From an uncultured bacterium (lineage in GTDB: Bacteria; Acidobacteriota; HRBIN11; JAKEFK01), in the NCBI GenBank assembly GCA_963843285.1, contig CAWJJO010000012.1, positions 140,399-204,398 of the forward strand: a stretch of 64,000 bases of DNA, read 5' to 3'. A program made the position numbers and the translations under genes. This document shows positions 2,769 to 63,761 of the stretch, one piece after another; the stretch's first letter is position 1, and each line of letters opens with the position of its first letter. Under the pieces are notes generated by a model, which saw only the letters and a program-made list of their open reading frames with translations, ran no database searches and was not told the origin of the DNA.

Positions 2769-4223
2769 CTACTCCACTTCAGAATTCGCTGCTGTACGAA
2801 TCGCGCCGCGTAGCAGTGCCGATTCTACAGGGCGAATTTCTCCGGACAGATAAAATCCCAGAAGAATGAATACGGATATCACAAACAGTTTCACAATCAA
2901 CACAATGCCAGCGGCTGGCCAGAAAGCTGCCAGGGCATATCCAGCCGCCCCAAGAGCTACACTGCGAAAGAATGTCCCTACGGGAGGAACAATGCGCAAT
3001 AGCCGGTAGACCGGAATCAGGCTGACAAGCGCTCCCGCAACTGCAAATCCGGTCGTAACGGTGGCAGCTCCGATTGCGCCGTAGTGTGGAATCACTTTTA
3101 AATCGGCAAAAAACGCAAGCGGAACGAGTGGACCGCCCAGTAGAAACGTCAATACCGGCCTCCCGGCGGCGGTCAAAATGGCGGTTGTCACGGAGATCAT
3201 CGCAAGACCGATTGCTCCGAAAAATAGCATTGAAAAGAGCGGCCCTGAATCGACAAAGGCGGAGCCGAACACAAACCTCGCGATTTCACGAGAAGAGCCC
3301 GCAGCCATTCCCGCAAAAGACACCATGGCAATGACAACACGAAGGGAATTCCTTCCCATTTCCCTGGCTTGCTCTTCACGTCCGGCAATCAGTGCGCGGC
3401 TCATGCTGGAAAGAAGCAACGGAGAAAAGGAGAGCGCGAAAACCGCCGGGACAAGCGAGAGATTTTGCGCAGCGCCGTAAATTCCGGCTACTGCCGCGCT
3501 CCCACCCAGTGCCTTCAGCATTACAAGATCCAGCTTGTCATAAATACGCAAACTCAGCGCAAACAGAAACAAAGGCAGCGCGTAATCCCACAATCGGGAA
3601 AGGGGAAAGTCTGAACGATGAAAAAAAGCCGGGCGGATGTAGTAACGCGCAACTACCAACTCGATCAGCGAAGCGCCAATGCATCCCAGAATCGCTCCGC
3701 GGACAGACCAGCCGAAAAATAAGAATGCAAGGATCAAAACGAGGCGCGCGATCCAACGGACGGCACTCACAACCGCTCGTTCATGAAACGCGCCGATTCC
3801 GACCAGTATGTTACGGTGCGCCTGTGCCAGACTAAATAGCGGAATATCGATCGCAAACAATCGTAAATAACCCGCAAGATCGGGCTCCGTCAGGGCTCGA
3901 GATAAGGGAACGCTGGCAAGCCAGAGCAGCGCGGCGGAGACAAAACTGATCACGATATGTAGCCTGACGACAGTGGTTCCCACCGGCTTCCAATCCTTCG
4001 CTTCTCCTACAAACTTGAACGTTGCACGACCGAAAATAGCGGGAATGCTCCATTCGATCCAACTCACAATCACGGCCGAAAGTGTGAATAACCCGTAACC
4101 GGCGGGTCCCAGATTCCGGGTCAAATATGCTGCGGTGATCAGGCCGGTAGGAAACAAAAGCGCCTCGGAAAGGAATACGCGCACAGTCCCGCCAACCATG
4201 TTTCCTGCTCGAGAAGTGGACAT
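2769..4223 (-). CDS. Polysaccharide biosynthesis protein, MOP-superfamily (Wzx/RfbX-like) lipid-linked oligosaccharide flippase
   Basis: 484-aa ORF that is hydrophobic throughout, with about 12-14 predicted TM segments. The N-terminal pattern (LLFPTGLITAAYLTRNLGPAGYGLFTLSAVIVSWI) is typical of Wzx-type polysaccharide biosynthesis proteins. An alternative start lies at M9 (4199). Confidence 0.7.
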   Translation of the reverse strand: MSTSRAGNMVGGTVRVFLSEALLFPTGLITAAYLTRNLGPAGYGLFTLSAVIVSWIEWSIPAIFGRATFKFVGEAKDWKPVGTTVVRLHIVISFVSAALLWLASVPLSRALTEPDLAGYLRLFAIDIPLFSLAQAHRNILVGIGAFHERAVVSAVRWIARLVLILAFLFFGWSVRGAILGCIGASLIELVVARYYIRPAFFHRSDFPLSRLWDYALPLFLFALSLRIYDKLDLVMLKALGGSAAVAGIYGAAQNLSLVPAVFALSFSPLLLSSMSRALIAGREEQAREMGRNSLRVVIAMVSFAGMAAGSSREIARFVFGSAFVDSGPLFSMLFFGAIGLAMISVTTAILTAAGRPVLTFLLGGPLVPLAFFADLKVIPHYGAIGAATVTTGFAVAGALVSLIPVYRLLRIVPPVGTFFRSVALGAAGYALAAFWPAAGIVLIVKLFVISVFILLGFYLSGEIRPVESALLRGAIRTAANSEVE

Positions 4224-4266
4224 CTCGCAAATCCTATCACAAGTAAGTAAACTAGAGCCGCCGATG

Positions 4267-4299
4267 TGAATGATGAATTCGGAATAATGAATGATGAAT
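4267..4299. promoter_or_regulatory. Exact 12-nt direct repeat TGAATGATGAAT x2, spaced 21 bp start to start, in a 67-bp divergent intergenic region
   Basis: Copies lie at 4267-4278 and 4288-4299. The second copy contains the ATG (4291) of the DUF362 gene. The spacing equals two helical turns. Confidence 0.3.
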
Positions 4300-5334
4300 C
4301 AGGCTTCCACTGTAGCAATTCTTCCCGTTCAAGACAGCGTTCAAGATACCGTGCGGCGCGTCATGGATCTGGCCAACTGGAAAAGCTACCTAAAACCGAG
4401 CAAACCTACCGCCTTAAAAGTCAACCTCGGTTGGGATCTGTTTTTGCCGGGCTCAATCACATCTCCGTGGGTACTGGAAGGTGTGATCCAAACTGTAAGA
4501 GAGTATGTTGGGCCTCTGTACCTGGTGGAATCGGATCAGGTGCTGGAGAACATCGAAAAGGCCTTTCGCAAAGCTCGCCTTCAGGAACTATGCGACCGTT
4601 ATGGCGTCCGGTGGGTCAATCTCTCAAAGACCGAATATGTACGTCTTCCTGTTCAAAACGGCAAGGTATTTCCGCATCTGGATGTCCCGCGGATCCTGAC
4701 GGAAACTCAGATGATTACCATCCCGGTCATGAAAACCCACGCCAAGACACGAATCACCGGAGCGATCAAGAATCAATGGGGATGCATCAGCAAACTGCGT
4801 CATAACTATCATCTGGTGTTGACCGATGCGCTGGCGGATATCAACAGCGTGATCGGTCCCTCGTTTGCGGTAATGGACGCTACGATTGCATTAGAAGGAA
4901 ACGGTCCGAAGTCAGGCCGGCCAAAAGTCATTGACCGTGTGCTTGCTTCACATGATATTGTCGCGCTGGATACGATCCAGGCGAAGCTCATGGGACTGGA
5001 TCCGGCCACGATCGCCCACGTGCAGGCATGCGCAGAGCGGGGCCTTGGCGCCTCTGCACTTACCCAGATTGAAATTGTCGGAGAAAAGGATCTTGCTTCA
5101 TTTGATTTCATTCCCGCGCGTCACAACCTGGTATCACGTCTGGAAGAATCGCTGCGAAGATCCAGCCTGAAATGGCTCGTCTTTGACACCCCCGTTTTTT
5201 TGCTGATGTTGTTGGGCGCAAAACTCTGGTATTTACTCTGGCTTTATCTTTTTGGCGGAAACAAATACTGGGACATCGCCCTTCGTCATCCGGTTTACGG
5301 ACCGGAATGGCAACACCTGCGTGACAAACAGTGA
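4291..5334 (+). CDS. DUF362 domain protein with a C-terminal hydrophobic segment
   Basis: 347 aa. The layout KVNLGWD...ITSPWVLEGVI...IPVMKTHAKTRITGAIKNQWG...AVMDATIALEGNGP...IVALD matches my recollection of the DUF362 family. The C-terminal WLVFDTPVFLLMLLGAKLWYLLWLYLF looks like a TM segment. Its stop overlaps the next start by 4 nt. Confidence 0.65.
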   Translation: MMNQASTVAILPVQDSVQDTVRRVMDLANWKSYLKPSKPTALKVNLGWDLFLPGSITSPWVLEGVIQTVREYVGPLYLVESDQVLENIEKAFRKARLQELCDRYGVRWVNLSKTEYVRLPVQNGKVFPHLDVPRILTETQMITIPVMKTHAKTRITGAIKNQWGCISKLRHNYHLVLTDALADINSVIGPSFAVMDATIALEGNGPKSGRPKVIDRVLASHDIVALDTIQAKLMGLDPATIAHVQACAERGLGASALTQIEIVGEKDLASFDFIPARHNLVSRLEESLRRSSLKWLVFDTPVFLLMLLGAKLWYLLWLYLFGGNKYWDIALRHPVYGPEWQHLRDKQ

Positions 5335-6638
5335 GAGTTGCAATCATCGGAGGAGGAGCCGCCGGTCTTTCGGCCGGATATGAGCTTTCCAAACTCGGTG
5401 TGACGGTAGAATTATTTGAACGCGACAGCGCGCTTGGTGGCCTCGCCGGCTCCTTTCTGCTGGATGGCGGATATGTTGAAAAGTTTTATCACTTCATCTG
5501 TCTGAACGATTTTACATACCTGCAGACTTTGAAGGAGCTAGGATTGAATCATCGCCTTCGCTGGCGTTTGACTGAAATGGGGCAGCTTTACAATGGAACA
5601 CTGTATTCCTTTGGACGCCCGTTCGATCTCTTACGCTTCCCTCATCTGAAATGGAAAGACAAATTCCGGTTTGCGCGAAACGTCATGAAAATCAAATCCG
5701 CGCCATGGAAGGACTGGAAGAAGATTGAAGACATTCCGGTGGAGGAGTGGCTGCAGGATACGTTTGGGGCGCAGGTATATCGCACACTGCACGAACCGAT
5801 GGTACGGCTAAAATTCGGAAAGTACAAAGAGAAGCTGTCGGCATCCTGGATGTGGGCGCGGATTCACCGCCTGGGCAAATCGCGGACAAGGATCCGGCAA
5901 CGGGAAAAAGTAGGATATGTGGAAGGCGGAAGCCAGATCATTATGGACGCGCTCGGCGACGAAATCCGGAAACGCGGCGGCGTTCTTCATCTCAACGCCC
6001 AGGTTCAGCAACTCATTGTGAGCAACAACTCTGTGACCGGAATCATCGCAGATGGAAAAGAACGTAGCTACGATGCTGTTGTCTCTACGGTTCCGCTGCC
6101 TGCTTTTCTGCGACTGCTCCCCGCGTCTGTGGATGGCGATTACTGGAGACACTTGCGGAACATCGAATCGATCGGCGTGATGTGCGTTTTTTTGCGTACC
6201 GGCAAAAGTTTGACGAAGTTTTTCTGGACAAATATCAGCGATCCGCGAATCGAGCTTGCGGGTGTAATTGAATACACGAATCTGAATCCTCTGCCGCACT
6301 TGAATGGAGATAGCATCATCTATCTGCCGCAATATCTACCGTCCACAACAGAAAAATTCAAGAGGCAGGACGACGAAATCATCGAAGAATATCTGGGGTA
6401 TCTGAAATTGATCAACCCTGCCTTCAACACGGATCAGGTAAGACAGGCGCTTGTGTTTCGCGAGAAATATGCGCAGCCCATTTGCGAAGTCGGATTCACA
6501 AAAGACATTCCGGATTTCCGCACTCCTTTGCGCGGTCTCTATCTGACCGATTCTTCGCAGCTGCATCCGGACGACCGGACCATCAGCAACAGCCTCGGCC
6601 TGGGAAAATCAGCCGCCTCTGCAGTCCTGGATATGTAA
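5331..6638 (+). CDS. NAD(P)/FAD-dependent oxidoreductase (amine oxidase / phytoene desaturase / HemY-like fold)
   Basis: 435 aa with a GTG start overlapping the upstream stop. N-terminal Rossmann motif VAIIGGGAAGLSAGYEL...ELFERDSALGGLA. The length and C-terminal region are typical of this fold. Confidence 0.75.
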   Translation: MRVAIIGGGAAGLSAGYELSKLGVTVELFERDSALGGLAGSFLLDGGYVEKFYHFICLNDFTYLQTLKELGLNHRLRWRLTEMGQLYNGTLYSFGRPFDLLRFPHLKWKDKFRFARNVMKIKSAPWKDWKKIEDIPVEEWLQDTFGAQVYRTLHEPMVRLKFGKYKEKLSASWMWARIHRLGKSRTRIRQREKVGYVEGGSQIIMDALGDEIRKRGGVLHLNAQVQQLIVSNNSVTGIIADGKERSYDAVVSTVPLPAFLRLLPASVDGDYWRHLRNIESIGVMCVFLRTGKSLTKFFWTNISDPRIELAGVIEYTNLNPLPHLNGDSIIYLPQYLPSTTEKFKRQDDEIIEEYLGYLKLINPAFNTDQVRQALVFREKYAQPICEVGFTKDIPDFRTPLRGLYLTDSSQLHPDDRTISNSLGLGKSAASAVLDM

Positions 6639-6654
6639 CCATTTGGTTACATAT
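6631..6654. other. Perfect palindrome ATATGTAACCA-tt-TGGTTACATAT overlapping the stop codon of the oxidoreductase gene
   Basis: The 11-nt arms are exact reverse complements. It lies in the 77-bp gap between convergent genes. There is no flanking T-run, so terminator function is uncertain. A protein-binding site is equally possible. Confidence 0.4.
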
Positions 6655-6715
6655 CGTCCACAGCGCCCTTCCAGTAAAGTCTTCCTGTGGCGTCTTCAGA
6701 CCGATGGCAGATCCT

Positions 6716-7975
6716 TCATTCCTGCAATGTTCCCTGTTCGCGGACCTTCTTTTGTTCCTTGAGAACATGAATGATCCGGTGAATGATACTGAACGCAAGC
6801 AGCTGGAATCCAAGCAGAACCAGCAGACCGCCGCTAACTACGTAGCTCCAGTGAACCTGAATGTGAGCGGTGGTCACATATTGCGCGATCGCCCTGACAT
6901 TCAATGCAAGGGCGGCAATCAGAAACAGCAACCCGATGTATCCCAGCTTTCTGAGAAATGCTTTATCCAGCATTCGTTCAACTGCCGTATTCATCTCGTA
7001 GTTGTGAGCCAGATTGGTCATCGTCTGCGTAATCAAACCCAGCGAAATCATCTGGACGCCTGAAACGGCAGCAACGACAACAAAAATCAAACGATAGATC
7101 CGGTCCTCAGGCACATTTCGATACTCGATGTAGTGGATCAAAGTCGGAATTCCGTAGAAGAGAGCGGGGAGAAGGAACAGGATTCCGATGACTCCGAAAA
7201 GTCGCAACGGCTTGTAGGTAAAGGCGATTTCCAGGATCGTTTTCAAAAAGCCGATTCCATCCTGGATAATGCGAAGTTTCGAACTGCCGATGCGTTCTTC
7301 ATAGGGGATGGGGACCTCTTCAATGCGGATGTCGCGATCCAGGATCGCGCGAACGCTCATTGCGGGCGTAAAGTGTAACCCATCCGGAAGAGGATAGAGT
7401 TTGTGCAGGATGCTCTTCTTCAGCACTCTCATTCCGCTGGCAACATCGCTTACGCTCGAGCTGCCGATCGCGTTTACCAGATTGCGATACAGGATGTTGC
7501 CGACTCTGCGTGTTGCCGGCATCCGGCTGTTCGCATGCAACCGGCCGCCAATCACTATATCGGCATTCGTTTCGTTCATCTTTCGCAGAAACTCGATGAA
7601 CAAAAGCGGATCGCAAGTACCGTCGGCGTCCAGAAAACTCACAAGATCTCCGGAAGAAGCTTCGAATCCTGTAATAATAGCGGCCCCGTAACCACGATTT
7701 TTTGGGTAACTGATGAGATGGATCAAGCCGCGGTCTGCAAATTCTTTAGCGATTTCAGCCGTCCTGTCTTTGGAACCATCGCTTACAACGATCACTTCTA
7801 CGGATTCGACGCCCGCTTTTTGAATGATCCTGGGTGCAGCAGCGAGAGTGCGTTCGATGATACTCCGGATCGCTTCTTGCTCGTTGTAGGCGGGAATGAC
7901 GATAGACAACTTCTGCATGGCTTCATTGTCGCATAAAGCACATTCACGACGGTATGCTCTGATGGTGAGAGCCAT
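6716..7975 (-). CDS. GT2 polyprenyl-phosphate glycosyltransferase (GtrB/DPM1/ArnC-like) with C-terminal TM helices
   Basis: LSIVIPAYNEQEAI, VVSDGSKD, NRGYGAAI, LDADGTCDP, then four hydrophobic segments after about residue 255. The probable true start is MQKLSIV at 7918; the ORF-track start is 7975. Confidence 0.85.
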   Translation of the reverse strand: MALTIRAYRRECALCDNEAMQKLSIVIPAYNEQEAIRSIIERTLAAAPRIIQKAGVESVEVIVVSDGSKDRTAEIAKEFADRGLIHLISYPKNRGYGAAIITGFEASSGDLVSFLDADGTCDPLLFIEFLRKMNETNADIVIGGRLHANSRMPATRRVGNILYRNLVNAIGSSSVSDVASGMRVLKKSILHKLYPLPDGLHFTPAMSVRAILDRDIRIEEVPIPYEERIGSSKLRIIQDGIGFLKTILEIAFTYKPLRLFGVIGILFLLPALFYGIPTLIHYIEYRNVPEDRIYRLIFVVVAAVSGVQMISLGLITQTMTNLAHNYEMNTAVERMLDKAFLRKLGYIGLLFLIAALALNVRAIAQYVTTAHIQVHWSYVVSGGLLVLLGFQLLAFSIIHRIIHVLKEQKKVREQGTLQE

Positions 7976-8099
7976 GGTTGTGCTTGTGTGATGTTTGCCT
8001 GTCGAAGGGAAAGCAGCAACGTCTGCTACCTACGGGTCGGTCTCGCATTTGACAAGAGAACAAAATTGTTGCCAGATTATATGTCCAAATTATACGAGG

Positions 8100-8846
8100 A
8101 TGAAACTGCAACCTAACCCGGCTCCCATTTCAGGAAAAGAGCCTCACTCGCTTTCGATTGTAATGCCTGTGTTTAATGAGCAGGAAGTAATCGCTACGGT
8201 AGTTGCAGAGCTTGCAGAGGTGTTGGAAAAATTTCGAGACCACGAGTTTGTGATTGTAAACGATTGTAGCACCGATCAAACTCTTTCCATTCTTGAATTG
8301 CTTCAGTCCAAATATCCGTATGTTCGTTTGGTGACGTCGCAGCAAAACTGTGGACATGGTCCAACTCTGGCACGCGCTTACCGCGAATCCTCCGGTGAAT
8401 TCATATTTCATACCGATAGCGACCGTCAATTTTTCGCGGAGGATTTCTGGTTACTGTGGCAAAAAATGAAAAACGAGCAGTTGGATCTCGTCATTGGATA
8501 CCGTGAGGATCGCAAAGATCCCTTCGCGCGACTTGTATTCACAAAGCTGGTTCGGGTTTTCTTGCGGTTTCTATTCGGTGTCAATCTCCCGGACAGTAAT
8601 TCCCCATTCAGGTTGTATAACCGGAAGGCGTTGGATCAGTTATTGACTATTCTTCCCGCGGAACCAATGATACCATCGATTCTGATGGTGATTGCAGCAT
8701 ATAGGCAAGGAATGAAAGTGGGCTGGGTTGGTGTTCGTCATTTGGCTCGCAAGACGGGCAAGTCATTTCTTCGTAGTTGGAAGATATTTCGACTTTGCGT
8801 CCCTGCCGTAAAAGAAGTTCTAAGATTTCGACGCTCTTTTGCATGA
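8100..8846 (+). CDS. GT2 glycosyltransferase, DPM1/GtrB-like catalytic domain without TM anchor
   Basis: LSIVMPVFNEQEVI, VNDCSTD, HTDSDRQF, NSPFRLYNR. The ORF track begins at 7995, but the ATG at 8100 (MKLQPN) fits the domain boundary better. The stop overlaps the next gene start (ATGA at 8843-8846). Confidence 0.8.
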   Translation: MKLQPNPAPISGKEPHSLSIVMPVFNEQEVIATVVAELAEVLEKFRDHEFVIVNDCSTDQTLSILELLQSKYPYVRLVTSQQNCGHGPTLARAYRESSGEFIFHTDSDRQFFAEDFWLLWQKMKNEQLDLVIGYREDRKDPFARLVFTKLVRVFLRFLFGVNLPDSNSPFRLYNRKALDQLLTILPAEPMIPSILMVIAAYRQGMKVGWVGVRHLARKTGKSFLRSWKIFRLCVPAVKEVLRFRRSFA

Positions 8847-10228
8847 ATCCCCCGTCATCCAATTCCAAGATTGTGATCATCGGTATGGGCGCCTGCGGAC
8901 TTGGAGCTGCATGGAGGCTGCAGGAGCTCGGCCACGATTCTTTCAAGATTTTTGAAAGGAAACCTTATCCCGGTGGTCTGGCTTCTTCTGTAACAGATAA
9001 GAACGGCTTCACCTGGGACATTGGCGGTCATGTTCAGTTTTCGCATTACAGATACTTTGATGAGTTGATGGATTCGCTCATGGGGGAAGAATGGGTCTAT
9101 CACGAAAGAAGCTCCTGGATTTGGATCAAAGAGCGGTTCGTGCCTTATCCATTCCAAAACAACATCAGATATTTGCCGCGCGAAGACATCTGGAGTTGTC
9201 TATCCGGATTAATCGATTTATATCGGGAGCCGGCCTCCCAACCACACAATTTTCGGGAATGGATTCTCACAGTTTTCGGTAAAGGGATTGGCGAAGCCTT
9301 TATGATCCCTTACAACAAGAAGGTTTGGGCCTATGACCCGGAAAAACTCTCGTATAGCTGGATTGGCGACCGTGTCGCCACGGTCGATTTGGCCAGGATT
9401 TTGAAAAATATTGTATTTGAAAGAGACGACATTTCCTGGGGACCCAATAACCGTTTTCGCTTCCCTCTCAAGGGCGGAACGGGAGAAATTTGGAGAAGGT
9501 TATTTCAGCGTCTGGATTCTCAAAAAACTTTTCTCAATTGCGAATTGGAGGAAGTGAATACACGTAATAAGTACATCATGTTCTCCAATGGACAAAAGGA
9601 GCCTTACGATGTTCTGATCAGCACGATTCCGCTGGATCAACTCATTCTCTTATCAGATTTCAACGACAAGTCATACGCCAAAATGCTCCTGCACTCTTCA
9701 ACGAATATCGTTGGCGTCGGGTTAAAAGGCCAGCCGCCCGAACATCTAAAAACTAAATGCTGGATGTACTTTCCCGAATCCAACTGCCCTTATTACCGGG
9801 TTACCGTGTTCTCAAAATATTCTCCTTGCAATACTCCTGATCCGAACAGGTACTGGTCCTTGATGGCGGAAGTATCCGAATCTTCGGACAAGAAAGTGGA
9901 TCATGAATCGCTTTGCGCTGAGGTAGTGCAAGGAATGTTGCATACAAAATTGATCGAATCGCGAGAGGACATTGTCGACCTTTGGTATCATTTTGAACCC
10001 TACGGTTATCCCACGCCTTCTCTAGAAAGGGACGAGGCTCTGAAGGTGTTGAGAGCATTCGAGGAATGCAGCGTCTATTCGCGCGGCCGTTTTGGCGGTT
10101 GGAAATACGAGGTATCTAACCAGGATCATTCCTTAATGCAGGGTGTGGAGCTCATCAATCGACTCATTCTTCAGGAAAAAGAACTCACACTCTGGAATCC
10201 CCATGTAGCGAACCAGAGTGTTCGTTAG
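8843..10228 (+). CDS. glf: UDP-galactopyranose mutase, eukaryotic-type (FAD-dependent)
   Basis: By eye it matches motif after motif of fungal/protozoan UGM as I recall it. These are IGMGACGLGAA, PGGLASS, GGHVQFSHYRYFDE, VPYPFQNNIRYLP, WGPNNRFRFPLKGGTGEIW, CWMYFPESNCPYYRVTVFSKYSP, YWSLMAEVSESS, YGYPTPSLERD and SRGRFGGWKYEVSNQDHSLMQGVE. The start at MNPPSS (8843) is preferred over the ORF-track 8777. Confidence 0.85.
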   Translation: MNPPSSNSKIVIIGMGACGLGAAWRLQELGHDSFKIFERKPYPGGLASSVTDKNGFTWDIGGHVQFSHYRYFDELMDSLMGEEWVYHERSSWIWIKERFVPYPFQNNIRYLPREDIWSCLSGLIDLYREPASQPHNFREWILTVFGKGIGEAFMIPYNKKVWAYDPEKLSYSWIGDRVATVDLARILKNIVFERDDISWGPNNRFRFPLKGGTGEIWRRLFQRLDSQKTFLNCELEEVNTRNKYIMFSNGQKEPYDVLISTIPLDQLILLSDFNDKSYAKMLLHSSTNIVGVGLKGQPPEHLKTKCWMYFPESNCPYYRVTVFSKYSPCNTPDPNRYWSLMAEVSESSDKKVDHESLCAEVVQGMLHTKLIESREDIVDLWYHFEPYGYPTPSLERDEALKVLRAFEECSVYSRGRFGGWKYEVSNQDHSLMQGVELINRLILQEKELTLWNPHVANQSVR

Positions 10229-13305: not shown

Positions 13306-13430
13306 TCTAAAATTTTCTCTTGCGTCCTAATATGGATATCACTATACATCCTCATATTTCAATTCGTACCTTCATTTGTAGCTGTCAATCTTCCGCAAGT
13401 GTTATCATGGAGGCGCATCGAGGGAACAGC

Positions 13431-26711: not shown

Positions 26712-26724
26712 GTCGCAGCGAAGT

Positions 26725-39288: not shown

Positions 39289-39316
39289 GCAATTACATCC
39301 CTTACTCTTTGCGGAC

Positions 39317-56833: not shown

Positions 56834-57721
56834 ATGGAAAAATATCCACCTACGTTTTCGGTTATTGTTCCCACCTATGGAAGGCATAGACAATTAGGCT
56901 CGTGCCTTCAGGCTTTGGCACAGCTCGACTACCCCCGCGAATTCTTTGAGGTAATTATCGTTGATGACGGCAGCGAAATTTCGGCCGAATCGAGCCTCGA
57001 GTCGTTTCGAGACAAAATTGATATTCAATTTGTCAGACAGGATCATGCCGGGCCCGCAACCGCGCGAAACAGGGGCGCGCAACATGCGAAAAAGGAATTT
57101 CTCGCCTTTACCGATGACGACTGTGCGCCTGCGTCTGATTGGTTGAGGAAGCTGGCCTCCCGCTTTCAAGAGTTACCGGATCATGGCATCGGAGGGCGAA
57201 TTCTGAATTCACTTACGAAGAACCTTTATTCTTCCGCCGGCCAATTGCTGACCGATTACCTGTACGCTTATTACCATGATTCCACAGGGAATGTTCGTTT
57301 CTTCGCATCCAATAACCTCGCTTTTCCTGCGAAACGATTCCGGGAAATTGGCGGCTTTGACCAGAGTTTCCCTTTGCCGGCAGCCGAGGATCGCGAGTTG
57401 TGTGACCGTTGGCTCCGCAAGGGTTACAGTTTGACGTATGCGCCGGATGTTGTCGTTTATCATAGCCATGATCTAACGTTTCGGACTTTTTGGAGGCAAC
57501 ACTTCAATTACGGGCGCGGCGCTTTGTTCTTTCAGCAAATCCGGCCGGAACCAACTCGCGTCGAGCCATTATCGTTTTATCTGAAGTTGCTGCAATATCC
57601 TTTTCGCCAATCCAGCAGGCATGGATTGATGCTTTCGGCATTGCTGGCTCTTTCGCAAGTAGCTAACGCAACCGGTTTTTTTTGGGAGAAGAAATCTGGA
57701 AGGAACCCCGGACGCGGATGA
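56834..57721 (+). CDS. GT2 glycosyltransferase (paralogue of 53968-54864)
   Basis: FSVIVPTYGRHRQL, IVDDGSE, AGPATARNRG, LAFTDDDCAPASDWL, AEDRELCDRW. Collinear with 53968-54864. Confidence 0.85.
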   Translation: MEKYPPTFSVIVPTYGRHRQLGSCLQALAQLDYPREFFEVIIVDDGSEISAESSLESFRDKIDIQFVRQDHAGPATARNRGAQHAKKEFLAFTDDDCAPASDWLRKLASRFQELPDHGIGGRILNSLTKNLYSSAGQLLTDYLYAYYHDSTGNVRFFASNNLAFPAKRFREIGGFDQSFPLPAAEDRELCDRWLRKGYSLTYAPDVVVYHSHDLTFRTFWRQHFNYGRGALFFQQIRPEPTRVEPLSFYLKLLQYPFRQSSRHGLMLSALLALSQVANATGFFWEKKSGRNPGRG

Positions 57722-57747
57722 AAGGTGGAGGGCATCCGTCCATCACA

Positions 57748-59322
57748 TTACGCATGAAAATTGGAGCTCAAAATATAATCGCAGGCTCGTAAGGCAAGAG
57801 CCATCGTAGTCAGGGTGGGGTTCTGAAAACTGATCGTGGGAAAACAGGAGGAATCAACAACAAATAGGTTGGGAATCTCCCACATCTGATTGTGTCCATT
57901 GAGCACAGATTCTTTTTCGGTTCGCCCCATCCGCACTCCACCGCTTTCATGAATGGCACTTCCAGGCACCGGGCGATCACTAATGATTCCGGTACGGCGA
58001 ACGAAAGCGGAAAGCATGCGAATCGGCAGCGGCAAGAATTCGCGTGATCTGGAAAATCCTGCTGCATCCGCAAGTTCTTGCATAGTCCGGACAGCATCCG
58101 CACACAAAGCTTTTTCATTCTCTGAATACGAGCATTCAATGTGCGCCGCGGGTATTCCCCACCTATCTTTTACCTTCCGGTTCAACGTAACCCGGTTCTC
58201 TTTTTTCGGCAGCATTTCACCGACCGCTGCAAGTGACCAGAACATTCCGGCTCGCCCCAGAGATCCCTGAATCCCGTAGGTACCCCGGAAACCGCCATCC
58301 TCAAACTGGCGTTTTCTGATTCGTGGCAGGTACACCCCCATATCCGAGGAGAGATTAAACCAATTCGGAGCTATGTGACTGCTTTCAGTCGTGGATCCAA
58401 TTTGCCAAACGCTGATATGATCCATGACGTAACAACCGAGAACTCCGGATGAATTTCCCAGTCCGCCTGGATGCTTTCCTGAAGAAAAGTTTAGCAAAAT
58501 CCGGATCGTTTCAATCGTGGACGCACAACAGACTACAACGTCGCTATAGAAATTGAGGCGTGTACCGGCAAGGCAGTCAACGCAGGATACGCCTACTGCG
58601 CGCTTTTCTTCCGGATCCATCAGTATGGAATCGACCGCCATGGATGGCCTCAACTCCGCGCGTCCGGTTTCGAGGGCGCTCTGCAGCATAGGAGATACCG
58701 GACCGCAAGGATAACCCAGAACCCGGATTGGAATCACAACTCTACCGGGCCACTTTTTCTCAACAGAAACCTTAAAATGATGTTCTGTTGGAGTAATCTC
58801 ATGATTTCTTACGTAGTGTCCATCCGGCAATCCATCGATGCCGTCTTTTTGGCCTTCCAGCATCAAGAATTCTTCGATGCGACCGTAATGGGTCTCAAGA
58901 TCGCTATAGGAAATCGGCCAGGCTGCGCCGTCTTCCGCTTCGTATTGAAAGTCTTCCGGCGCGAATCTGAGAGCGAGTCGTCCCCAGGTATGACCTCTGC
59001 CGCCTACCTGTCTGCCACGGAACCATCGAAATGGCTTCTCTTTCGGGAATGTGTACGGGTTTTGCCTTTCATCGACATAGAAGTGTTGCGTTGCGGAATT
59101 CAATACGGCGGCGCTGGCGATTCGCCGATGGCCACCCAAAAGGAAGCCTGCCCGCTGGACAATGCCGTCTTTTGGAGTTCGAACAAAGTCGGCTTCCTTC
59201 ATCACCGGGCCAGCCTCCAGAATCAATACACGAAGCCCTCCTTCCGATAAACCTTTGGCCATCCATTCTCCATTCAATCCGGCTCCAATTACGATTGCGT
59301 CGTAGTGATTGTGTTTATTCAT
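57748..59322 (-). CDS. GMC-family FAD oxidoreductase (divergent fourth copy)
   Basis: 524 aa. YDAIVIGAGLNGEWMAKGL..VLILEAGP. C-terminal NLFVVDSSCFPTISFQNPTLTTMALALRA. The start overlaps the upstream GT2 gene by 8 nt. Confidence 0.85.
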   Translation of the reverse strand: MNKHNHYDAIVIGAGLNGEWMAKGLSEGGLRVLILEAGPVMKEADFVRTPKDGIVQRAGFLLGGHRRIASAAVLNSATQHFYVDERQNPYTFPKEKPFRWFRGRQVGGRGHTWGRLALRFAPEDFQYEAEDGAAWPISYSDLETHYGRIEEFLMLEGQKDGIDGLPDGHYVRNHEITPTEHHFKVSVEKKWPGRVVIPIRVLGYPCGPVSPMLQSALETGRAELRPSMAVDSILMDPEEKRAVGVSCVDCLAGTRLNFYSDVVVCCASTIETIRILLNFSSGKHPGGLGNSSGVLGCYVMDHISVWQIGSTTESSHIAPNWFNLSSDMGVYLPRIRKRQFEDGGFRGTYGIQGSLGRAGMFWSLAAVGEMLPKKENRVTLNRKVKDRWGIPAAHIECSYSENEKALCADAVRTMQELADAAGFSRSREFLPLPIRMLSAFVRRTGIISDRPVPGSAIHESGGVRMGRTEKESVLNGHNQMWEIPNLFVVDSSCFPTISFQNPTLTTMALALRACDYILSSNFHA

Positions 59323-60250
59323 TGATTGGACCTACAGAACTTAGTTGAGCTTGAATTCTTCTCCCCTGCTCCAGATCAAAAATCCTGAATTTTGCAAGAC
59401 TCCATTTCTGCAGACGATAACTCAAAGAAACTCTAAGTACTCCGAAGCCGTATTTCACGCTTCGCTTAAAACTGATGCTGCTGGCCTCTTTATGATACTT
59501 TGCCGGACAACTTACTTCTCCAATTTCATACCCGGCGTATGCAATCTGGGCCAATATTTCGTTATCAAACACAAAGTCATCCGAGTTTTCTTCCAGCGGA
59601 AGCTTTAAGAGAATCTCTTTGTCAAAAGCCCTGTACCCTGTGTGGTATTCGGCCAGCTTCTGGTTCAACAGGATGTTTTGAAAAAGGGTGAGCAGCCGAT
59701 TCGATACATACTTGTAAAACGGCATGCCTCCTTTTAATGCACCCTTTCCGAGGATTCTAGATCCCAACATTGCGGCAAATAGGCCTCGGACAACCGGATA
59801 CACCATGGCCTCCATTAACAATGGAGTATATTGATAATCCGGGTGCAACATGACTACAATGTCTGCTCCTGCTGCTAAAGCTTCGCGGTAACAGGTTTTC
59901 TGGTTGCCACCATAACCCCGGTTCTTTTCGTGACGGATTATTTTTTGTATCCCAAGCTTTTTTGCCAGCTCCACCGTGTCATCGAGAGAGAAATCATCCA
60001 CCAGTATGATTTCGTCCACAATATCAAACGGAATCTGTCGATAGGTAAGTTCCAGAGTTCTTTCGGCGTTGTAGGCCGGCATCACAACGATGATTTTCTT
60101 TCCCTCAATCATTGAAAAATATGCTCGATCGATTGCTTTTCCACCAGACAAGATAACAACAAATAGACCGACAAGCCGTTCAACAAGTTTCTGCACCGCA
60201 AAACGTCTGTCACAGCGAAACCTTGCTTCAGAATACCACTGAATACGCAT
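59315..60250 (-). CDS. GT2 glycosyltransferase, DPM1/GtrB-like
   Basis: KIIVVMPAYNAERTL, LVDDFSLDDT, NRGYGGNQK, VMLHPDYQYTP. The core domain starts at MIEGKK (60112). The longer ORF from 60250 adds a possible N-terminal hydrophobic segment. Confidence 0.8.
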   Translation of the reverse strand: MRIQWYSEARFRCDRRFAVQKLVERLVGLFVVILSGGKAIDRAYFSMIEGKKIIVVMPAYNAERTLELTYRQIPFDIVDEIILVDDFSLDDTVELAKKLGIQKIIRHEKNRGYGGNQKTCYREALAAGADIVVMLHPDYQYTPLLMEAMVYPVVRGLFAAMLGSRILGKGALKGGMPFYKYVSNRLLTLFQNILLNQKLAEYHTGYRAFDKEILLKLPLEENSDDFVFDNEILAQIAYAGYEIGEVSCPAKYHKEASSISFKRSVKYGFGVLRVSLSYRLQKWSLAKFRIFDLEQGRRIQAQLSSVGPINE

Positions 60251-60304
60251 CGGTCTTCATCGGGACTTCATATTCACCAGGCACTCCTGGTGTAGTATTA
60301 ACAC

Positions 60305-61219
60305 ATGCCGAAGACAAGAATTGCACTCCTGATTCCCTGTTACAACGAGGAAATCACGATCGGCGAAGTGGTGCAAAGTTTCCGGAATCAGTTGCCCGAT
60401 GCAGCCGTGTACGTGTTTGATAACAACTCTTCGGATGGCACCATGGAAAGAGCGACGGAAGCGGGGGCCACCGTGCTGCTGGAGCGCAGACAGGGAAAGG
60501 GATACGTGGTTCAATCGATGTTCCGGCTGGTGGAAGCTGATGTTTATGTCATGGTAGATGGCGATGGAACATATCCGGCAGAAGCTGTGCACAAAATTCT
60601 CGCGCCCGTATTGAGCGGAGAAGCGGACATGGTTGTTGGATCGCGGCTCCACCCGGAATCACAAAGCCAATTCAAGACGCTCAACCGCTTCGGCAATCGT
60701 TGTATCACAACGCTATTGCGCCGCATCTTCCATGTGAAGCTCACAGACATCCTTTCCGGCTATCGCGCATTTAACCGCGATTTCGTTAAAGGAATTCCGC
60801 TGTTTGGCGGAGGTTTTGAGATCGAAACAGAGCTGACCATCAAAGCGCTCGAACGCGGCTACCGGATGGTTGAAGTGCCGATCGATCTGACATCGCGTCC
60901 TGCAGGCTCACAATCTAAAATTCGTTTGGTACGCGATGGGTTTCTGATTCTCAACACGATCCTGGCTTTTTTTCGCGATTACAAACCGCTCACCTTTTTT
61001 GGTTTCACCGGTCTGGCTCTTGCGATCACAGGAATTGTGCTGAGTGTGTTTTTTTCCACGTCCGCGTTGTACCTGGCGCTTGTGCTTTCGGGTTTGCTTC
61101 TGATGATTGCCGGACTGATCCTGCATACAATCGTGCGACGCTTCCAGGAGCTCGATCACCAGATCCGGGTCCAAAAACCACCGCTATTGTCTCAGGAAAC
61201 GGACCGAAACAAACGATAA
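60305..61219 (+). CDS. GT2 polyprenyl-phosphate glycosyltransferase (GtrB/ArnC-like) with two C-terminal TM helices
   Basis: IALLIPCYNEEITI, VFDNNSSDGT, VMVDGDGTYPA, LSGYRAF, then the TM segments LTFFGFTGLALAITGIVLSVFF and LYLALVLSGLLLMIAGLIL. Confidence 0.85.
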   Translation: MPKTRIALLIPCYNEEITIGEVVQSFRNQLPDAAVYVFDNNSSDGTMERATEAGATVLLERRQGKGYVVQSMFRLVEADVYVMVDGDGTYPAEAVHKILAPVLSGEADMVVGSRLHPESQSQFKTLNRFGNRCITTLLRRIFHVKLTDILSGYRAFNRDFVKGIPLFGGGFEIETELTIKALERGYRMVEVPIDLTSRPAGSQSKIRLVRDGFLILNTILAFFRDYKPLTFFGFTGLALAITGIVLSVFFSTSALYLALVLSGLLLMIAGLILHTIVRRFQELDHQIRVQKPPLLSQETDRNKR

Positions 61220-62047
61220 TCCCAGGTTGCGGCGATCCGCCTTTGATTTGATCGGTACAAAAGTTTGCGAACGGATTAACAGACTGTGAATTTCTGGAAT
61301 CTCCTTCCCGTCAACCTGAAAATGATACTCACCTGCCTCACTCTTCAGCAAAGTTGCAGCAGTTGTGCCATTTATAATCAATTCCGGGTTTCCGCCGCCC
61401 GCCGGAAATCTTTTGATCGTTGACAGGATCAGCGTCGTGTCCTTTCCTTCCGTGTGAAACGTAAAGTCAGTGATCTCACTGGCCCCTGTAGTCCACCGCC
61501 ACCCCCTTTCCTGCGAATAGAAGTTCAGAAATGTCACATCCTGATCATCAAAACGAATTCCACTCTTTTCAGGCGGGGCTTCCTTCTCAGAGATCCGATA
61601 AACATCCAGATTCATGGAACTGTTTTGGGGGGGATCAGGAAACGAATCTTGATTTACCTTAGGAATATACACAAAGGAAATGTGAAAACCTGTTCGTTTT
61701 TCGACACGAAAAATCCTCTGCGACTTCAACGCTGTGAGACTGGAAGGGTCCAGGATCGCAAAAAGAGGTCTTCGTTGACGCTTCAAATAGGAATCAACGA
61801 TCGCTTTGAATCGGGGAGATAGTTGCCGATCAAAAGGCAATAGTAGCACATCGCGATCTAGAAAATACTGAAGCGGCGTCTCCAGGTGAATCCCTGCATA
61901 ATTATCGGCAACCAGAAGTAGCGCATTCGCCGGGACATGATCGTCCAGAGTCTTCGTCTGCGCAAGTACATCTTTATATAGCCGCTGCGCCAGTAGATCG
62001 TAAGAGTTAGTAATAAAGACGCACGCAATCGCACCAACAAAAATCAC
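61184..62047 (-). CDS. Soluble (probably extracytoplasmic) domain protein. Likely the C-terminal part of the 62007-63761 membrane protein, or a separate overlapping gene.
   Basis: 287 aa from a GTG start. The short N-terminal hydrophobic stretch IFVGAIACVFI becomes a full TM segment (IDFLFVIFVGAIACVFI) only if the frame is extended upstream, where it meets a stop at about 62099. Confidence 0.45.
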   Translation of the reverse strand: MIFVGAIACVFITNSYDLLAQRLYKDVLAQTKTLDDHVPANALLLVADNYAGIHLETPLQYFLDRDVLLLPFDRQLSPRFKAIVDSYLKRQRRPLFAILDPSSLTALKSQRIFRVEKRTGFHISFVYIPKVNQDSFPDPPQNSSMNLDVYRISEKEAPPEKSGIRFDDQDVTFLNFYSQERGWRWTTGASEITDFTFHTEGKDTTLILSTIKRFPAGGGNPELIINGTTAATLLKSEAGEYHFQVDGKEIPEIHSLLIRSQTFVPIKSKADRRNLGLSFVSVRFLRQ

Positions 62048-63761
62048 GAAAAGAAAATCGATCGTGTTCCCGAATTGGAACGCGGTGCATCTTGCCCGTT
62101 AGACTAATTGCGTGCACTTTCGTCGCCGGCGGGCTGAAAGCGCGAGCTCCATTTGCCCGCGGTCCGAATCGAATCAGAGCCTGGCGCCAGCCGCTGACAC
62201 CAAAAAGGAACAGCAGCGGAAACACAACCGGAACAAATCTGCGGATCGTCCAAGGCTGATACTGAAATACGATCAGCGGAAAGATCAGGAGTGAGATCAA
62301 GTGTACCGGCAAAAACAGAAAAGCGCTCCGGGCAGGAAGGGAATCACTTTGCAGATAAAGGAACAGAACAGCCCCTATGAGCAAAAGCCCGAGGACTGCA
62401 GGAGAGGTGTAAAGAGAGAGCCAGCCGGTGTGCTGAAAGATGTCCGTCCAGTGAAAGCGCCGACGAAATAAAGACGACATCATCACGGCGATCGTCAAAA
62501 TACAAATGAGAATTCGTAAGCCACGTTTCCTCTCCACTGCACTCATGAGAACACTCGAGAGCGGGACTAGAAGAGCATATAGCGCCATCAGGAGCAGTCC
62601 TCCGATCCAGCGTTGCTGCAACAAGAAAGAGCCGAACTGCCGCAGCGACTCCGCCCAAACTTTCGTCACATTCTTATGTCCAAAGAAGGTCCCGACATAC
62701 AGGTATTCCTGGACCGTAAGCTGTTGGTACAGCGCCAGGAATCCACACGCGACCAGACAAACAAACAGCGTCCGCCATCTGGAAAGATTTTCTGCCAGAG
62801 GGCGCAGCATCGCAAAAACAAGCACCAGGCACAACGATCCATAAAAAAGCGAAAGGACGTGGCAGAGAAAAGTGGAGCCCCAGAGCATACCCACTACGAG
62901 CTGGTGTCCATGCTGCATCGTGCCGTCCGCACGCAATCCGCTGACAAAAACCCACAGACCGCTCAGAAATAGTGCTTGACCCAACCCCTCCGAGGTTGGC
63001 ATCCGCAAGAAATAAATCTCCGGATAAAAGCACAGAAAAAGCAGGGGTAAGGCGATGCCGGTTAACAGACCGCCGAATCTCCTCCCCAGCAGAAAAATCG
63101 CGGTCAAGCTCAGGATATAAAAGAAGGTGAGCAGAAGGAGAAATTGCTGTTGGCCCAGAATGGGAATCGCTGCCCCAAGCCAGACAGGAAACATGTGATA
63201 GAAGCCAAAAGTAACAGTCCCTTTGGAAACATCGATAAGCCTCACCCCACCTGGAAATCGCGCATCGACTCCCGTGGTGTCAAGCTTGAAACGGTTAAAA
63301 AACAAGCTCTTCCGTTCATTCTGACTCATCTCAAGAACAAGTGGATCGGTATAGAAAAGTCCTCCTGATTTGGCAATCTGTCCGGCGGTTGAAAGATAGA
63401 CCGATGCGTCATCGCCCTGCAAAAATGCTTCATACGGCGGACATAGTCTTGAAAATGCCATGACGGAGAAACCAATTGCAAGACAAAAAAGGATGTAGGA
63501 GACGGAGACACGTCTTTTCACGATCAGAAGCGACAGGAAGACAAGCAGAGCCGACGCAATGGCCACGGGCCTGAGGTAGCCGAAAAAGGCAAGAAGAAAA
63601 AAAATCAAAGAGCAAAGCCCAACTCCGGCAACAAAAATCTGAAACAGATCGGCAAAGGAGAGTTTCTTAGATTCGGATATTGTTGGAAACAAGAGGTGGA
63701 AAAACCACCCGGCGAGGCCGATGAAGAGAATAAAACCGATCAGTTTTAATTCATTGATCAA
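62007..63761 (-). CDS. Polytopic membrane protein, GT-C-like
   Basis: 584 aa. The loop is PPYEAFLQGDDASVYLSTAGQIAKSGGLFYTDP. About 13 TM segments. The last roughly 45 residues (..HRVPIREHDRFSFRDFCWCDCVRLYY) look non-native. Confidence 0.5.
   Translation of the reverse strand: MINELKLIGFILFIGLAGWFFHLLFPTISESKKLSFADLFQIFVAGVGLCSLIFFLLAFFGYLRPVAIASALLVFLSLLIVKRRVSVSYILFCLAIGFSVMAFSRLCPPYEAFLQGDDASVYLSTAGQIAKSGGLFYTDPLVLEMSQNERKSLFFNRFKLDTTGVDARFPGGVRLIDVSKGTVTFGFYHMFPVWLGAAIPILGQQQFLLLLTFFYILSLTAIFLLGRRFGGLLTGIALPLLFLCFYPEIYFLRMPTSEGLGQALFLSGLWVFVSGLRADGTMQHGHQLVVGMLWGSTFLCHVLSLFYGSLCLVLVFAMLRPLAENLSRWRTLFVCLVACGFLALYQQLTVQEYLYVGTFFGHKNVTKVWAESLRQFGSFLLQQRWIGGLLLMALYALLVPLSSVLMSAVERKRGLRILICILTIAVMMSSLFRRRFHWTDIFQHTGWLSLYTSPAVLGLLLIGAVLFLYLQSDSLPARSAFLFLPVHLISLLIFPLIVFQYQPWTIRRFVPVVFPLLFLFGVSGWRQALIRFGPRANGARAFSPPATKVHAISLTGKMHRVPIREHDRFSFRDFCWCDCVRLYY

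Follow-up and report, generated by a model that had tools for sequence, protein, structure and literature searches.

The 64,000-nucleotide window described here (contig CAWJJO010000012.1 of assembly GCA_963843285.1, positions 140,399 to 204,398) carries, between its positions 2769 and 63761, a locus crowded with putative membrane glycosyltransferases (GTs) of the GT-C fold. In a six-frame map of open reading frames (ORFs), this interval holds about 42 genes or gene fragments and hardly any unassigned space, and the tight gene spacing together with overlapping stop and start codons points to operons. We scanned every ORF of the window against Pfam, and ten orphan membrane proteins also against NCBIfam. 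The resulting inventory comprises 17 GT-C-like polytopic membrane proteins (401-676 aa), one MOP/Wzx-like protein, six GT2 and one GT4 glycosyltransferases, four GMC flavoenzymes, two further FAD enzymes, one DUF362 protein, two SGNH proteins with a single N-terminal anchor, four PF00884 Sulfatase-domain proteins (three with an N-terminal transmembrane (TM) bundle and one with a lipoprotein-like signal) and one PF01663 protein. An earlier interpretation made from the letters alone, the sequence-only reading, had proposed a glycan locus dominated by about 17 polytopic GT-C-like proteins. All gene classes that it listed are present at or near the positions it gave, and its count of membrane proteins agrees with ours, the MOP/Wzx-like protein and three TM-anchored phosphatase-superfamily proteins being additional.

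To assess the membrane proteins, we looked for a core of 7-13 TM helices and an extracytoplasmic loop with juxtamembrane helices after the first TM segment (TM1), as in known GT-C enzymes (PMC11127046), and for an acidic residue in that loop. Over the 17 proteins, support for a GT-C assignment was strong for eight, moderate for five, weak for two and at the level of a motif for two. The strong eight are four GT87 and two PMT_2 proteins that score above the Pfam cut-off, plus two proteins, MP-A and MP-G, assigned from AlphaFold models. All four GT87 proteins pass the family threshold (PF09594, cut-off 25 bits), two of them marginally: GT87a (12070-13305, minus strand; 33.4 bits), which is 40-44% identical to two other GT87 paralogues, GT87b (18144-19349, minus; 25.4 bits), GT87c (19524-20783, plus; 43.3 bits) and a divergent GT87/PIG-U-like protein, GT87d (40647-41900, minus; 26.0 bits, with PIG-U at 21 bits). 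The PMT_2 proteins PMT2a (31038-32546, minus) and PMT2b (50941-52422, minus) score 38 and 33.1 bits against a cut-off of 26.1.

Nine of the 17 membrane proteins have no match in the Pfam or NCBIfam libraries, and two of these nine, MP-A and MP-G, were modelled. A search of 5.8 billion protein clusters yielded only 8 homologues of MP-A (10459-12063, minus), an orphan with the motif IQDDW..FYRPL. Residues D41, D42, W43 and R75, which make up the motif, are invariant across them. The AlphaFold2 model built from the alignment of these homologues has a pLDDT of 73 and a pTM of 0.79. When it was searched with Foldseek against the PDB, the 20 best matches were STT3, ArnT, ALG9, PglB, AglB, DPY19, PMT and a GPI-transamidase subunit, with EmbC, AftA and AftD lower in the list. 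MP-G (45297-47327, plus) belongs to a YfhO/PTPS_related/AftD-like family and has a beta-rich C-terminal domain; of its 452 homologues in a representative library, some match Pfam PTPS_related, YfhO or DUF6541. Its AlphaFold2 model reached a pLDDT of 93.5 and a pTM of 0.94, and Foldseek returned AftD as the best match (E 5e-8), along with AftA, ArnT, AftB, AglB, OST, ALG12, DPY19 and PglB. For both models, nearly all significant Foldseek matches are GT-C structures, which strongly supports a predicted GT-C fold for the two proteins. Sequence searches of the PDB with the MP-A profile, with PMT2a and with a profile of the GT87 paralogues found nothing, PimE included in the case of GT87. Likewise, the NCBIfam scan of the ten orphan membrane proteins gave no matches, and Pfam searches of the orphans with E values up to 10 yielded noise and one faint GT87 match (MP-E).

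For the remaining proteins we relied on profile-profile alignment with hhalign, using the MP-G family profile (A2) as the reference; the three PMT_2 proteins aligned to it at about 60% as positive controls and the Wzx-like protein at 0.6% as a negative control. MP-D (22348-24024, minus) aligned to A2 at 95.5% (E 1.6e-8) with the N-termini in register, which relates it to the MP-G/YfhO-like family, and MP-E (28658-30340, plus; PDSISY..YWGPL) did so at 84.5% (E 7e-6), its faint Pfam GT87 match having an E value of 0.012. The profile (A3) of the family of the DUF6798 membrane protein (42048-43916, minus; Pfam DUF6798 65 bits) aligned to A2 at 96.5% (E 7e-10) over 300 columns in register from the N-terminus. 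We also considered this DUF6798 protein as a Wzy polymerase, but its Wzy_C match is just 16 bits (cut-off 31.7; E 0.0099), and the GT-C alignment is preferred. These comparisons give moderate support for MP-D, MP-E and the DUF6798 protein being GT-C-like.

Four further proteins are weakly indicated to be GT-C-like by the same kind of comparison. PMT2c (54861-56651, minus) falls just under the Pfam cut-off for PMT_2 (22.5 bits against 26.1) and aligns to A2 at 58%, in register. MP-C (20805-22334, minus; GDW..KGPL) falls just under that for Mannosyl_trans4 (28.5 bits against 33) and aligns in register to the DUF6798 family profile at 72%. MP-F (32552-33961, minus; GDGWAY..KPPGYPLF), a probable PMT_2-like protein that has no Pfam match, is in register with the three PMT_2 paralogues (hhalign 61%, E 8e-5). 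MP-I (61184-63761, minus; about 860 aa, GDDASVY), possibly PMT_2-related, is split into two ORFs; its homologues of 819-860 aa span both, and one of them has a PMT_2 match. Lastly, MP-B (16385-18139, minus; YYDDW) and MP-H (52521-54008, plus; Y-x-D-[ST]-x-G-Y .. P-[IL]-G-Y) are polytopic proteins lacking Pfam and NCBIfam matches, MP-B being placed here by motif and architecture and MP-H by motif. MP-B was considered as a relative of MP-A based on the shared DDW motif and rejected when hhalign against the MP-A profile was not significant. A metagenome scan with MP-H gave 6 relatives with a conserved motif, and its hhalign comparisons to other families were not significant. Hence the sequence-only reading of these membrane proteins as GT-C holds for most of them on Pfam, hhalign and Foldseek grounds, and for MP-B and MP-H at the level of a motif. 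None of the testable proteins came out as a transporter.

The same reading had placed acidic motifs in the first outer loop of these proteins. The motifs IQDDW..YRPL, YYDDW, GDW, PDSISY, WVDEVFS..NPPLYY, GDGWAY..KPPGYPLF, EFTDGY, LDESIP, GDDASVY, YFDSAGY and YPPAS are all found in the translations, directly after the first hydrophobic segment. Summed over the 17 proteins, the 18 residues before TM1 contain 50 K/R versus 18 D/E, and the 43 residues after it contain 55 K/R versus 78 D/E; this charge bias agrees with a cytoplasmic N-terminus and an external loop 1. In the families for which there are alignments, an acidic residue in this predicted extracytoplasmic loop is conserved and is a candidate catalytic residue: D40 reaches at least 90% conservation among members of the MP-G family, the Asp of D-[ST]-x-G-Y is kept in 8 of 8 MP-H relatives, and the MP-I family conserves the Asp of D-A-S-[VI]-Y.

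Next to these putative transferases lie enzymes that could supply their donors. The sequence-only reading counted four GtrB/DPM1-like GT2s; four genes do resemble such enzymes, and two ordinary ones bring the total to six. The first of the four (6716-7975, minus) has four C-terminal TM helices (residues 262-398), and its best PDB matches are ArnC (E 1e-21, residues 15-319), dolichol-monophosphate mannose synthase (DPMS; 5mlz) and GtrB (5ekp). It aligns to ArnC over the full length including two TM helices and carries two further ones. Its best NCBIfam matches are AglJ, PgfS, ArnC and a Dol-P-hexose transferase, each under the cut-off. The small GT2(b) (7995-8846, plus), whose gene overlaps the next one, scores 80 bits for Pfam GT2, with PgfS and ArnC as best NCBIfam matches. 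A DPMS/AglJ-like GT2 (59315-60250, minus) has DPMS 5mlz as its best PDB match (E 9e-10), with NCBIfam AglJ and PpgS under their cut-offs. The fourth (60305-61219, plus), AglJ/DPMS-like with one C-terminal TM segment, scores 232 bits for NCBIfam AglJ (cut-off 325) and 99 bits for the Dol-P-hexose transferase, and its best PDB matches are DPMS 5mlz (E 6e-14), then ArnC. By sequence, then, these four most resemble polyprenyl-phosphate glycosyltransferases. The ordinary GT2s are a MftF/EpsD-like protein (53968-54864, minus; NCBIfam MftF 172 and EpsD 150 bits, both under the cut-off, Pfam GT2 105 bits) and its paralogue (56834-57721, plus; 49% aa identity, Pfam GT2 89 bits), and the GT4 is a cytoplasmic GT-B enzyme (39317-40495, minus; Pfam Glycos_transf_1 142 bits plus Glyco_transf_4).

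The gene overlapping GT2(b) encodes a UDP-galactopyranose mutase (UGM; 8777-10228, plus); the sequence-only reading had listed a UGM, and this is its corrected position. It is of the eukaryotic type: phmmer matched it over the full length to the Trypanosoma cruzi UGM 4dsg at E 1.2e-135 (residues 30-479) and to the Aspergillus fumigatus UGM at E 1e-123. It has no GLF-domain match in Pfam and is not of the short bacterial Glf type. A second FAD enzyme (5331-6638, plus) was considered as a UGM and rejected, as it belongs to the amine-oxidase/phytoene-desaturase class (PRK07233 family, NCBIfam NF005560 470 bits, cut-off 252), with an uncharacterised oxidoreductase (3ka7) and phytoene desaturase as best PDB matches. 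A MOP-superfamily (Wzx-like) flippase with 8-11 TM segments is encoded at 2769-4223 (minus), with Pfam Polysacc_synt at 58 bits and Polysacc_synt_3 at 42.6 bits, both above cut-off.

The flippase, four GMC enzymes, five alkaline-phosphatase-superfamily enzymes and two SGNH enzymes named by the sequence-only reading were all found, the fifth phosphatase gene being frameshifted. GMC1 (13320-14942, plus; Pfam GMC_oxred_C/N) is 58-59% identical to GMC2 and GMC3, and its real start lies about 37 codons downstream. GMC2 (47400-48920, minus) is closest in the PDB to FAD-glucose dehydrogenase (6a2u, E 1.5e-58) and the large subunit of fructose dehydrogenase (E 1e-46); GMC3 (48920-50434, minus; Pfam GMC) is its tandem duplicate at 81% aa identity, and GMC4 (57748-59322, minus) scores 90 bits for GMC_oxred_C. 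Given these nearest relatives, we read the GMC proteins as probable sugar-oxidising enzymes, and none of them, GMC1 included, has a signal peptide.

In the phosphatase superfamily, enzyme 1 (23978-25999, minus; Pfam Sulfatase 166 bits) has a five-TM anchor and ..SWTLPAH.. in place of C-x-P-x-R, and enzyme 2 (26650-28557, plus; 157 bits, T-L-P-S-H) has a lipoprotein-like signal (..ALFSC). Enzyme 3 (34057-35886, minus; 154 bits, T-G-P-S-H), whose nearest PDB entries are S1 sulfatases, and enzyme 4 (35935-37761, minus) are TM-anchored tandem duplicates with 67% aa identity, visible as direct repeats at 1875-nt spacing. All four Sulfatase-domain proteins carry Thr for the sulfatase Cys at the aligned position (T-L-P-A-H, T-L-P-S-H, T-G-P-S-H and T-A-P-S-H). 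We rejected them as S1 formylglycine sulfatases since they have no C-x-P-x-R, though they are closest to S1 sulfatases in sequence. Thr at this position is typical of the phosphoryl-transfer branch of the superfamily (NPP, EptA, LtaS, GacH), and the nucleophile thus suggests that these proteins are extracytoplasmic phospho-transfer or phosphodiesterase enzymes. The fifth gene (37770-39357, minus) encodes a type I phosphodiesterase-family protein with no signal peptide (PF01663, Pfam Phosphodiest on the N-terminal part). The SGNH proteins are a membrane-anchored, AlgX-like hydrolase or acyltransferase with one N-terminal TM segment (SGNH1, 15065-16117, minus; Pfam Lipase_GDSL_2 45 bits, ALGX 27 bits) and a membrane-anchored hydrolase (SGNH2, 44188-45294, plus; Lipase_GDSL_2 30.8 bits, just under the cut-off of 32.9) whose 74% identical ortholog adjoins the MP-G ortholog in a related contig, L010.

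In the Pfam scans, no window protein matched an initiating phosphoglycosyltransferase (PGT; Bac_transf, MraY/WecA-type), Wzz/PCP, OPX (Poly_export), an ABC transporter or a processive synthase, and no Wzy match reached the cut-off in the window, the Wzy_C signal on the DUF6798 protein being the sole one. As a result, the MOP/Wzx-like protein is the only member of the Wzx/Wzy gene set in the window. The lack of these functions, already remarked on in the sequence-only reading, therefore applies within the window and cannot be claimed beyond it, as a relative has a further GT87 gene past the right end. UbiA, FAD_binding_4 and short-chain dehydrogenase families gave no Pfam matches in any window protein; without a UbiA-type synthase, DprE1 or DprE2 in the window, an arabinofuranose branch would be lacking. 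The window proteins include no detectable GtrA-family protein and no phosphatidylinositol mannoside (PIM) pathway genes, and they have no MIR-domain or PMT (PF02366) matches. Of the families that had been expected from the sequence, GT87, PMT_2, GT2 and PF00884 were thus found and PF02366 was not.

Comparison with related genomes showed that the gene families of the locus occur together. The closest genome fragment, a contig (L002) of an Acidobacteriota metagenome-assembled genome (MAG), carries GT87b, MP-B, GMC1, GT87a and MP-A in the same order at 83-94% protein identity, the syntenic MP-B ortholog being 83% identical. This agrees with the non-actinobacterial background supposed earlier. In L014, a Logan contig from a relative at roughly 90% identity (~86-97% for most orthologs, 68% for one), MP-I is intact and is succeeded by GT2(e), GMC4, PMT2c, GT2(c), TM-GT2, a small conserved protein and GMC3; a further GT87-like gene lies beyond the 5' end of MP-I and so past the right end of our window. 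In a more distant unclassified bacterium, GCA_975752425.1 (also GCA_022615055.1), orthologs with 50-77% identity lie on one 66.6-kb contig. They correspond to MP-E, a GT87, TM-anchored phosphatase-superfamily enzyme 4, DUF6798, MP-H, SGNH2, MP-G, GMC4, MP-F, the PF01663 gene (intact), GT4, GT87c, GMC1, GT87a, MP-A, a gene for a TM-anchored phosphatase-superfamily enzyme, GT2(b), UGM and GT2(d). This cluster ends at a STAND-kinase gene, and the families reported for the ~39 kb that we fetched of the contig include no PGT, Wzz or OPX. The sub-modules GT87-GMC-GT87-MP-A and GT2-UGM-GT2 are kept in relatives, with the GT2-UGM pair conserved in contigs L001 and L015 (the latter being the GCA_975752425.1 cluster), and the gene order is otherwise rearranged. 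Therefore, the gene set travels together across relatives at 50-94% protein identity.

Further observations concern mobility. In the GCA_975752425.1 cluster, an IS200-type (Y1_Tnp) transposase gene lies between the PF01663 gene and GT4 (positions 3822-4424 of L015), and that same cluster is broken up in L010 by genes for a glyoxalase and an AraC-type regulator. Distant MP-A homologues occur in TA06, Binatia, Krumholzibacteriota, Lentisphaerales, Myxococcales and proteobacterial MAGs, in unrelated neighbourhoods. The rarity of the MP-A family (8 clusters) and its spread over very different phyla suggest horizontal transfer.

Several genes of the locus are interrupted or partly copied. MP-I contains a 1-nt frameshift near 62040, apparently one extra base (ATGCACCGCG), which leaves two overlapping ORFs; as MP-I is intact in L014, the split copy is either a recent pseudogene or an assembly error. 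The PF01663 gene is split by a frameshift near 38650 into 38695-39357 and 37770-38594 (both minus), the motif DLIVASFGESHTGGH running on in another frame upstream of the ATG of the second ORF, and an intact 507-aa ortholog is present in L015. Since both genes are intact in relatives, both frameshifts may be assembly errors. A GT87 fragment of 163 codons (26189-26677, minus) repeats the middle part of GT87b at 18584-19076 (77% aa identity; an 80-84% nt direct repeat). Apparently left over from a duplication, it overlaps with the beginning of the neighbouring gene. The 5331-6638 FAD enzyme has a truncated paralogue at 30424-30870 (plus), an N-terminal fragment of 148 aa that shares 79% aa identity with it across 99 residues, matches NAD_binding_8 and the N-terminal part only of Amino_oxidase, and is followed by short unassigned ORFs up to 31153. 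At the left edge of the cluster, a 91-codon ORF (2491-2766, minus) starting MTSPQFSVIIPLCN.. resembles a GT2 N-terminus, has no Pfam match and may be another truncated gene.

Two other genes belong to the locus. A DUF362 protein (4291-5334, plus; Pfam 137.6 bits) is translationally coupled to the 5331-6638 FAD enzyme, its stop overlapping the start of that gene, and a small conserved membrane protein (50454-50891, minus) has no Pfam match and 50-86% identical orthologs within the related clusters L001, L014 and L015. The left flank (2-2590, minus) encodes a large protein with BNR/Asp-box and sortilin-Vps10 repeats and a hydrophobic segment near its N-terminus, which shows neither an evident tie to the cluster nor conservation in the related loci fetched. 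The right end (63762-64000) is intergenic; beyond the last gene, a G+C-rich palindrome at 63928-63950, ggcgcgcgtttcgcgcgcgcc, looks like the terminator of a gene outside the window. G+C content is 0.40-0.44 between 40000 and 46000 versus about 0.48-0.51 elsewhere. The divergent GT87/PIG-U-like gene, the DUF6798 gene and SGNH2 lie in this segment, which may be a separate acquisition. Neither the Rfam nor the tRNA scan of the window gave a match.

Based on these results, we propose, with a probability of about 0.65, that this is a conserved envelope-glycan locus whose product is built mainly on the outer face of the cytoplasmic membrane with lipid-linked single sugars as donors. It would encode 13 to 17 GT-C membrane glycosyltransferases of at least nine sequence families versus three Leloir-type transferases (the GT4 and the two ordinary GT2s). 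In the proposed scheme, GT2 enzymes would work at the cytoplasmic face, transferring sugars from nucleotide sugars to polyprenyl phosphate, and UGM would supply UDP-galactofuranose for a glycan that contains galactofuranose (Galf). The signal-less GMC proteins and the CrtI-like flavoenzyme could alter the sugar or lipid-linked sugar before export. The MOP protein would then flip the lipid-linked donors, a short primer built by the GT4 and the ordinary GT2s, or both, and the extra TM domain of the 6716-7975 GT2 may help in flipping. Outside the membrane, each GT-C would add one kind of sugar linkage to the growing glycan, the alkaline-phosphatase-type enzymes could add phospho-substituents, and the SGNH enzymes could add or remove acyl groups, comparable to GacH/LtaS/EptA-like and AlgX-like enzymes elsewhere. 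Galactofuranose, along with phospho- and acyl-type decorations, is thus a likely feature of the predicted glycan. Candidate acceptors are a lipid anchor, a polysaccharide or a protein.

Several observations weigh against this proposal. The MP-A model is of moderate confidence, with TM-scores to GT-C structures of about 0.4, and MP-B and MP-H, two of the 17, lack homology support for GT-C, their hhalign comparisons being not significant. On the donor side, none of the four polyprenyl-phosphate synthase-like GT2s reaches an NCBIfam equivalog cut-off, and GT2(b) is ambiguous because it also matches ordinary GT2 families. With no initiating enzyme in the window, the pathway is not complete within it. 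MP-A has distant homologues that stand alone, and a homologue of MP-I with 37% identity also lies in an unrelated neighbourhood; such enzymes can evidently work outside a cluster. Lastly, two frameshifted genes and three gene fragments point to some decay or sequencing error.

We compared the locus with known systems. The version of this logic that uses many GT-Cs is known from mycobacteria, whose arabinogalactan/lipoarabinomannan system (Emb, AftA-D, PimE/GT87, Ppm1, Glf, DprE1/E2) shares with the present locus many GT-Cs, donors that here are predicted to be polyprenyl-phosphate monosaccharides, GT87 members, UGM (and, as predicted here, Galf) and associated flavoenzymes, and provides the best structural matches of MP-G, AftD and AftA. 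Unlike that system, the window has no UbiA-type phosphoribosyltransferase, no DprE1 (a VAO-type FAD enzyme) and no DprE2. Its flavoenzymes are of GMC and CrtI types, its UGM is of the eukaryotic type rather than Glf, its lineage is apparently Acidobacteriota-like, its genes lie in one locus, and several of its GT-C families are orphan. With the ArnC/ArnT modification of lipid A, the locus shares the 6716-7975 GT2, which is closest to ArnC over its full length, and the presence of ArnT among the best matches of both models; with phospho-transfer of the EptA/LtaS type, it shares TM-anchored alkaline-phosphatase-superfamily enzymes with Thr at the nucleophile position. It differs from these in that no other Arn genes are present and the phosphatase domains are nearer to S1 sulfatases than to EptA or LtaS in sequence.

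More generally, it is established that a synthase, a flippase, sometimes of MATE/MOP type, and a GT-C work in combination, and that redox or epimerase helpers in the cytoplasm act on the lipid-linked sugar (PMC11127046). Three-component systems of this kind include GtrA/GtrB/GtrC of Shigella and Salmonella, CsbB/GtcA/YfhO, streptococcal GacI/J/K/L with the GroP transferase GacH, and Citrobacter PPPRS/MATE/GT136 (PMC11127046). The present locus is predicted to resemble them in having a GT2 polyprenyl-phosphate sugar synthase, a flippase that is sometimes of MOP/MATE type, an outward-acting GT-C, auxiliary cytoplasmic redox or epimerase enzymes and, in the streptococcal ones, decorators of the LtaS/alkaline-phosphatase type. 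However, each of them has one GT-C and one synthase that decorate the polymer of a separate, recognisable pathway, whereas the 61 kb of the present locus encode about 17 GT-C-like proteins and four synthase-like GT2s, and no backbone pathway is recognisable there. Even CAZyme-rich planctomycetes have 2-6 GT83 genes per whole genome (PMC5352709), and ~17 GT-C-like genes in 61 kb are far beyond what chance would place there. Literature searches found no description of such a cluster. The cluster stands out by its scale, its concentration in a single locus, its apparently acidobacterial host and its many orphan GT-C families, as well as by the pairing of GMC enzymes with GT87 and the eukaryote-type UGM. 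To our knowledge, no denser concentration of GT-Cs has been reported. Still, the claim in the sequence-only reading of an undescribed pathway type is too strong, as the logic of synthase, flippase and GT-C with LtaS-like decorators is that of three-component and mycobacterial systems (PMC11127046).

A bolder version of our proposal, which we offer tentatively as a less likely possibility, is a self-contained, non-actinobacterial GT-C assembly line comparable to that for lipoarabinomannan or arabinogalactan. It would make a Galf-containing, phospho- and acyl-decorated lipoglycan or wall polymer, built almost wholly outside the membrane from polyprenyl-phosphate monosaccharides, with no need of Wzy, an ABC transporter or a synthase. 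At least eight of its GT-C families would lie outside Pfam and NCBIfam, and the GMC proteins would remodel lipid-linked sugars in a DprE1-like manner.

Of the alternatives, the one that survives best is still unlikely: an ordinary Wzx/Wzy-type or similar locus in which the genes for initiation, polymerisation, chain-length control and export are either beyond the window or hidden among the membrane proteins that have no assignment, and in which the GT-Cs add only Gtr-like side chains after polymerisation. The Wzx-like MOP protein, the GT4 and the two ordinary GT2s would all belong in such a locus, MP-B and MP-H have no family assignment, and a close relative continues past the right end with another gene. 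Moreover, three-component decoration is the commonest known use of GT2 and GT-C pairs (PMC11127046). But 17 GT-C-like genes versus three Leloir genes are the reverse of a normal O-antigen or exopolysaccharide locus, and neither the 61 kb nor the ~39 kb fetched of the related 66.6-kb contig revealed a PGT, Wzz or OPX. As for a polymerase, the faint Wzy_C match of the DUF6798 protein (E 0.0099) is outweighed by the 96.5% alignment of its family to GT-C.

Rather improbable is protein O-glycosylation, in which PMT_2, YfhO or Pgf-like GT-Cs would move polyprenyl-phosphate sugars directly onto secreted or surface proteins and further GT-Cs would extend them. The three PMT_2-type and the YfhO/PTPS_related-like proteins would suit such a role, as would the matches of the GT2s to PgfS and AglJ, which act in protein-glycosylation pathways, and the oligosaccharyltransferases and PMTs among the structural neighbours of MP-A. 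However, lipids and teichoic acids are likewise glycosylated by members of the PMT_2 and YfhO families, and the window proteins lack MIR-domain and PMT (PF02366) matches. The large secreted BNR/sortilin-repeat protein that adjoins the cluster at 2-2590 might be taken as an acceptor, but no candidate acceptor gene is conserved in related loci, and GT-Cs this numerous and diverse, along with the phospho-transferase-like enzymes and the UGM, favour a complex polymer over short protein glycans. Lastly, the absence of any single pathway, with the locus an island of independent, partly decaying membrane-transferase paralogues assembled by duplication and transfer, is very improbable: it would account for the tandem duplicates (GMC2/3 and phosphatase-superfamily enzymes 3/4), the fragments at 26189-26677 and 30424-30870, the two frameshifted genes, the low-G+C segment at 40-46 kb, the IS200-type transposase in a related cluster and the solitary homologues elsewhere, but relatives at 50-94% protein identity have the same families side by side and conserve sub-modules, both genes that are frameshifted here are whole in relatives, so that the frameshifts may be assembly errors, and the tight spacing with overlapping stop and start codons indicates operons.

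Taken together, the fold and family assignments, the conserved acidic residues of the predicted outer loop, the synthase-like GT2s and the joint conservation of these genes are what our proposal of an outward-facing envelope-glycan locus draws on. GT-C enzymes are hard to recognise, and products are known for few bacterial ones outside pathogens. If a single glycan is built here, large-scale extracytoplasmic assembly from lipid-linked monosaccharides would not be an actinobacterial peculiarity, and the locus would offer biochemistry new GT-C families, a bacterial UGM of the eukaryotic type and candidate flavoenzymes acting on lipid-linked sugars.

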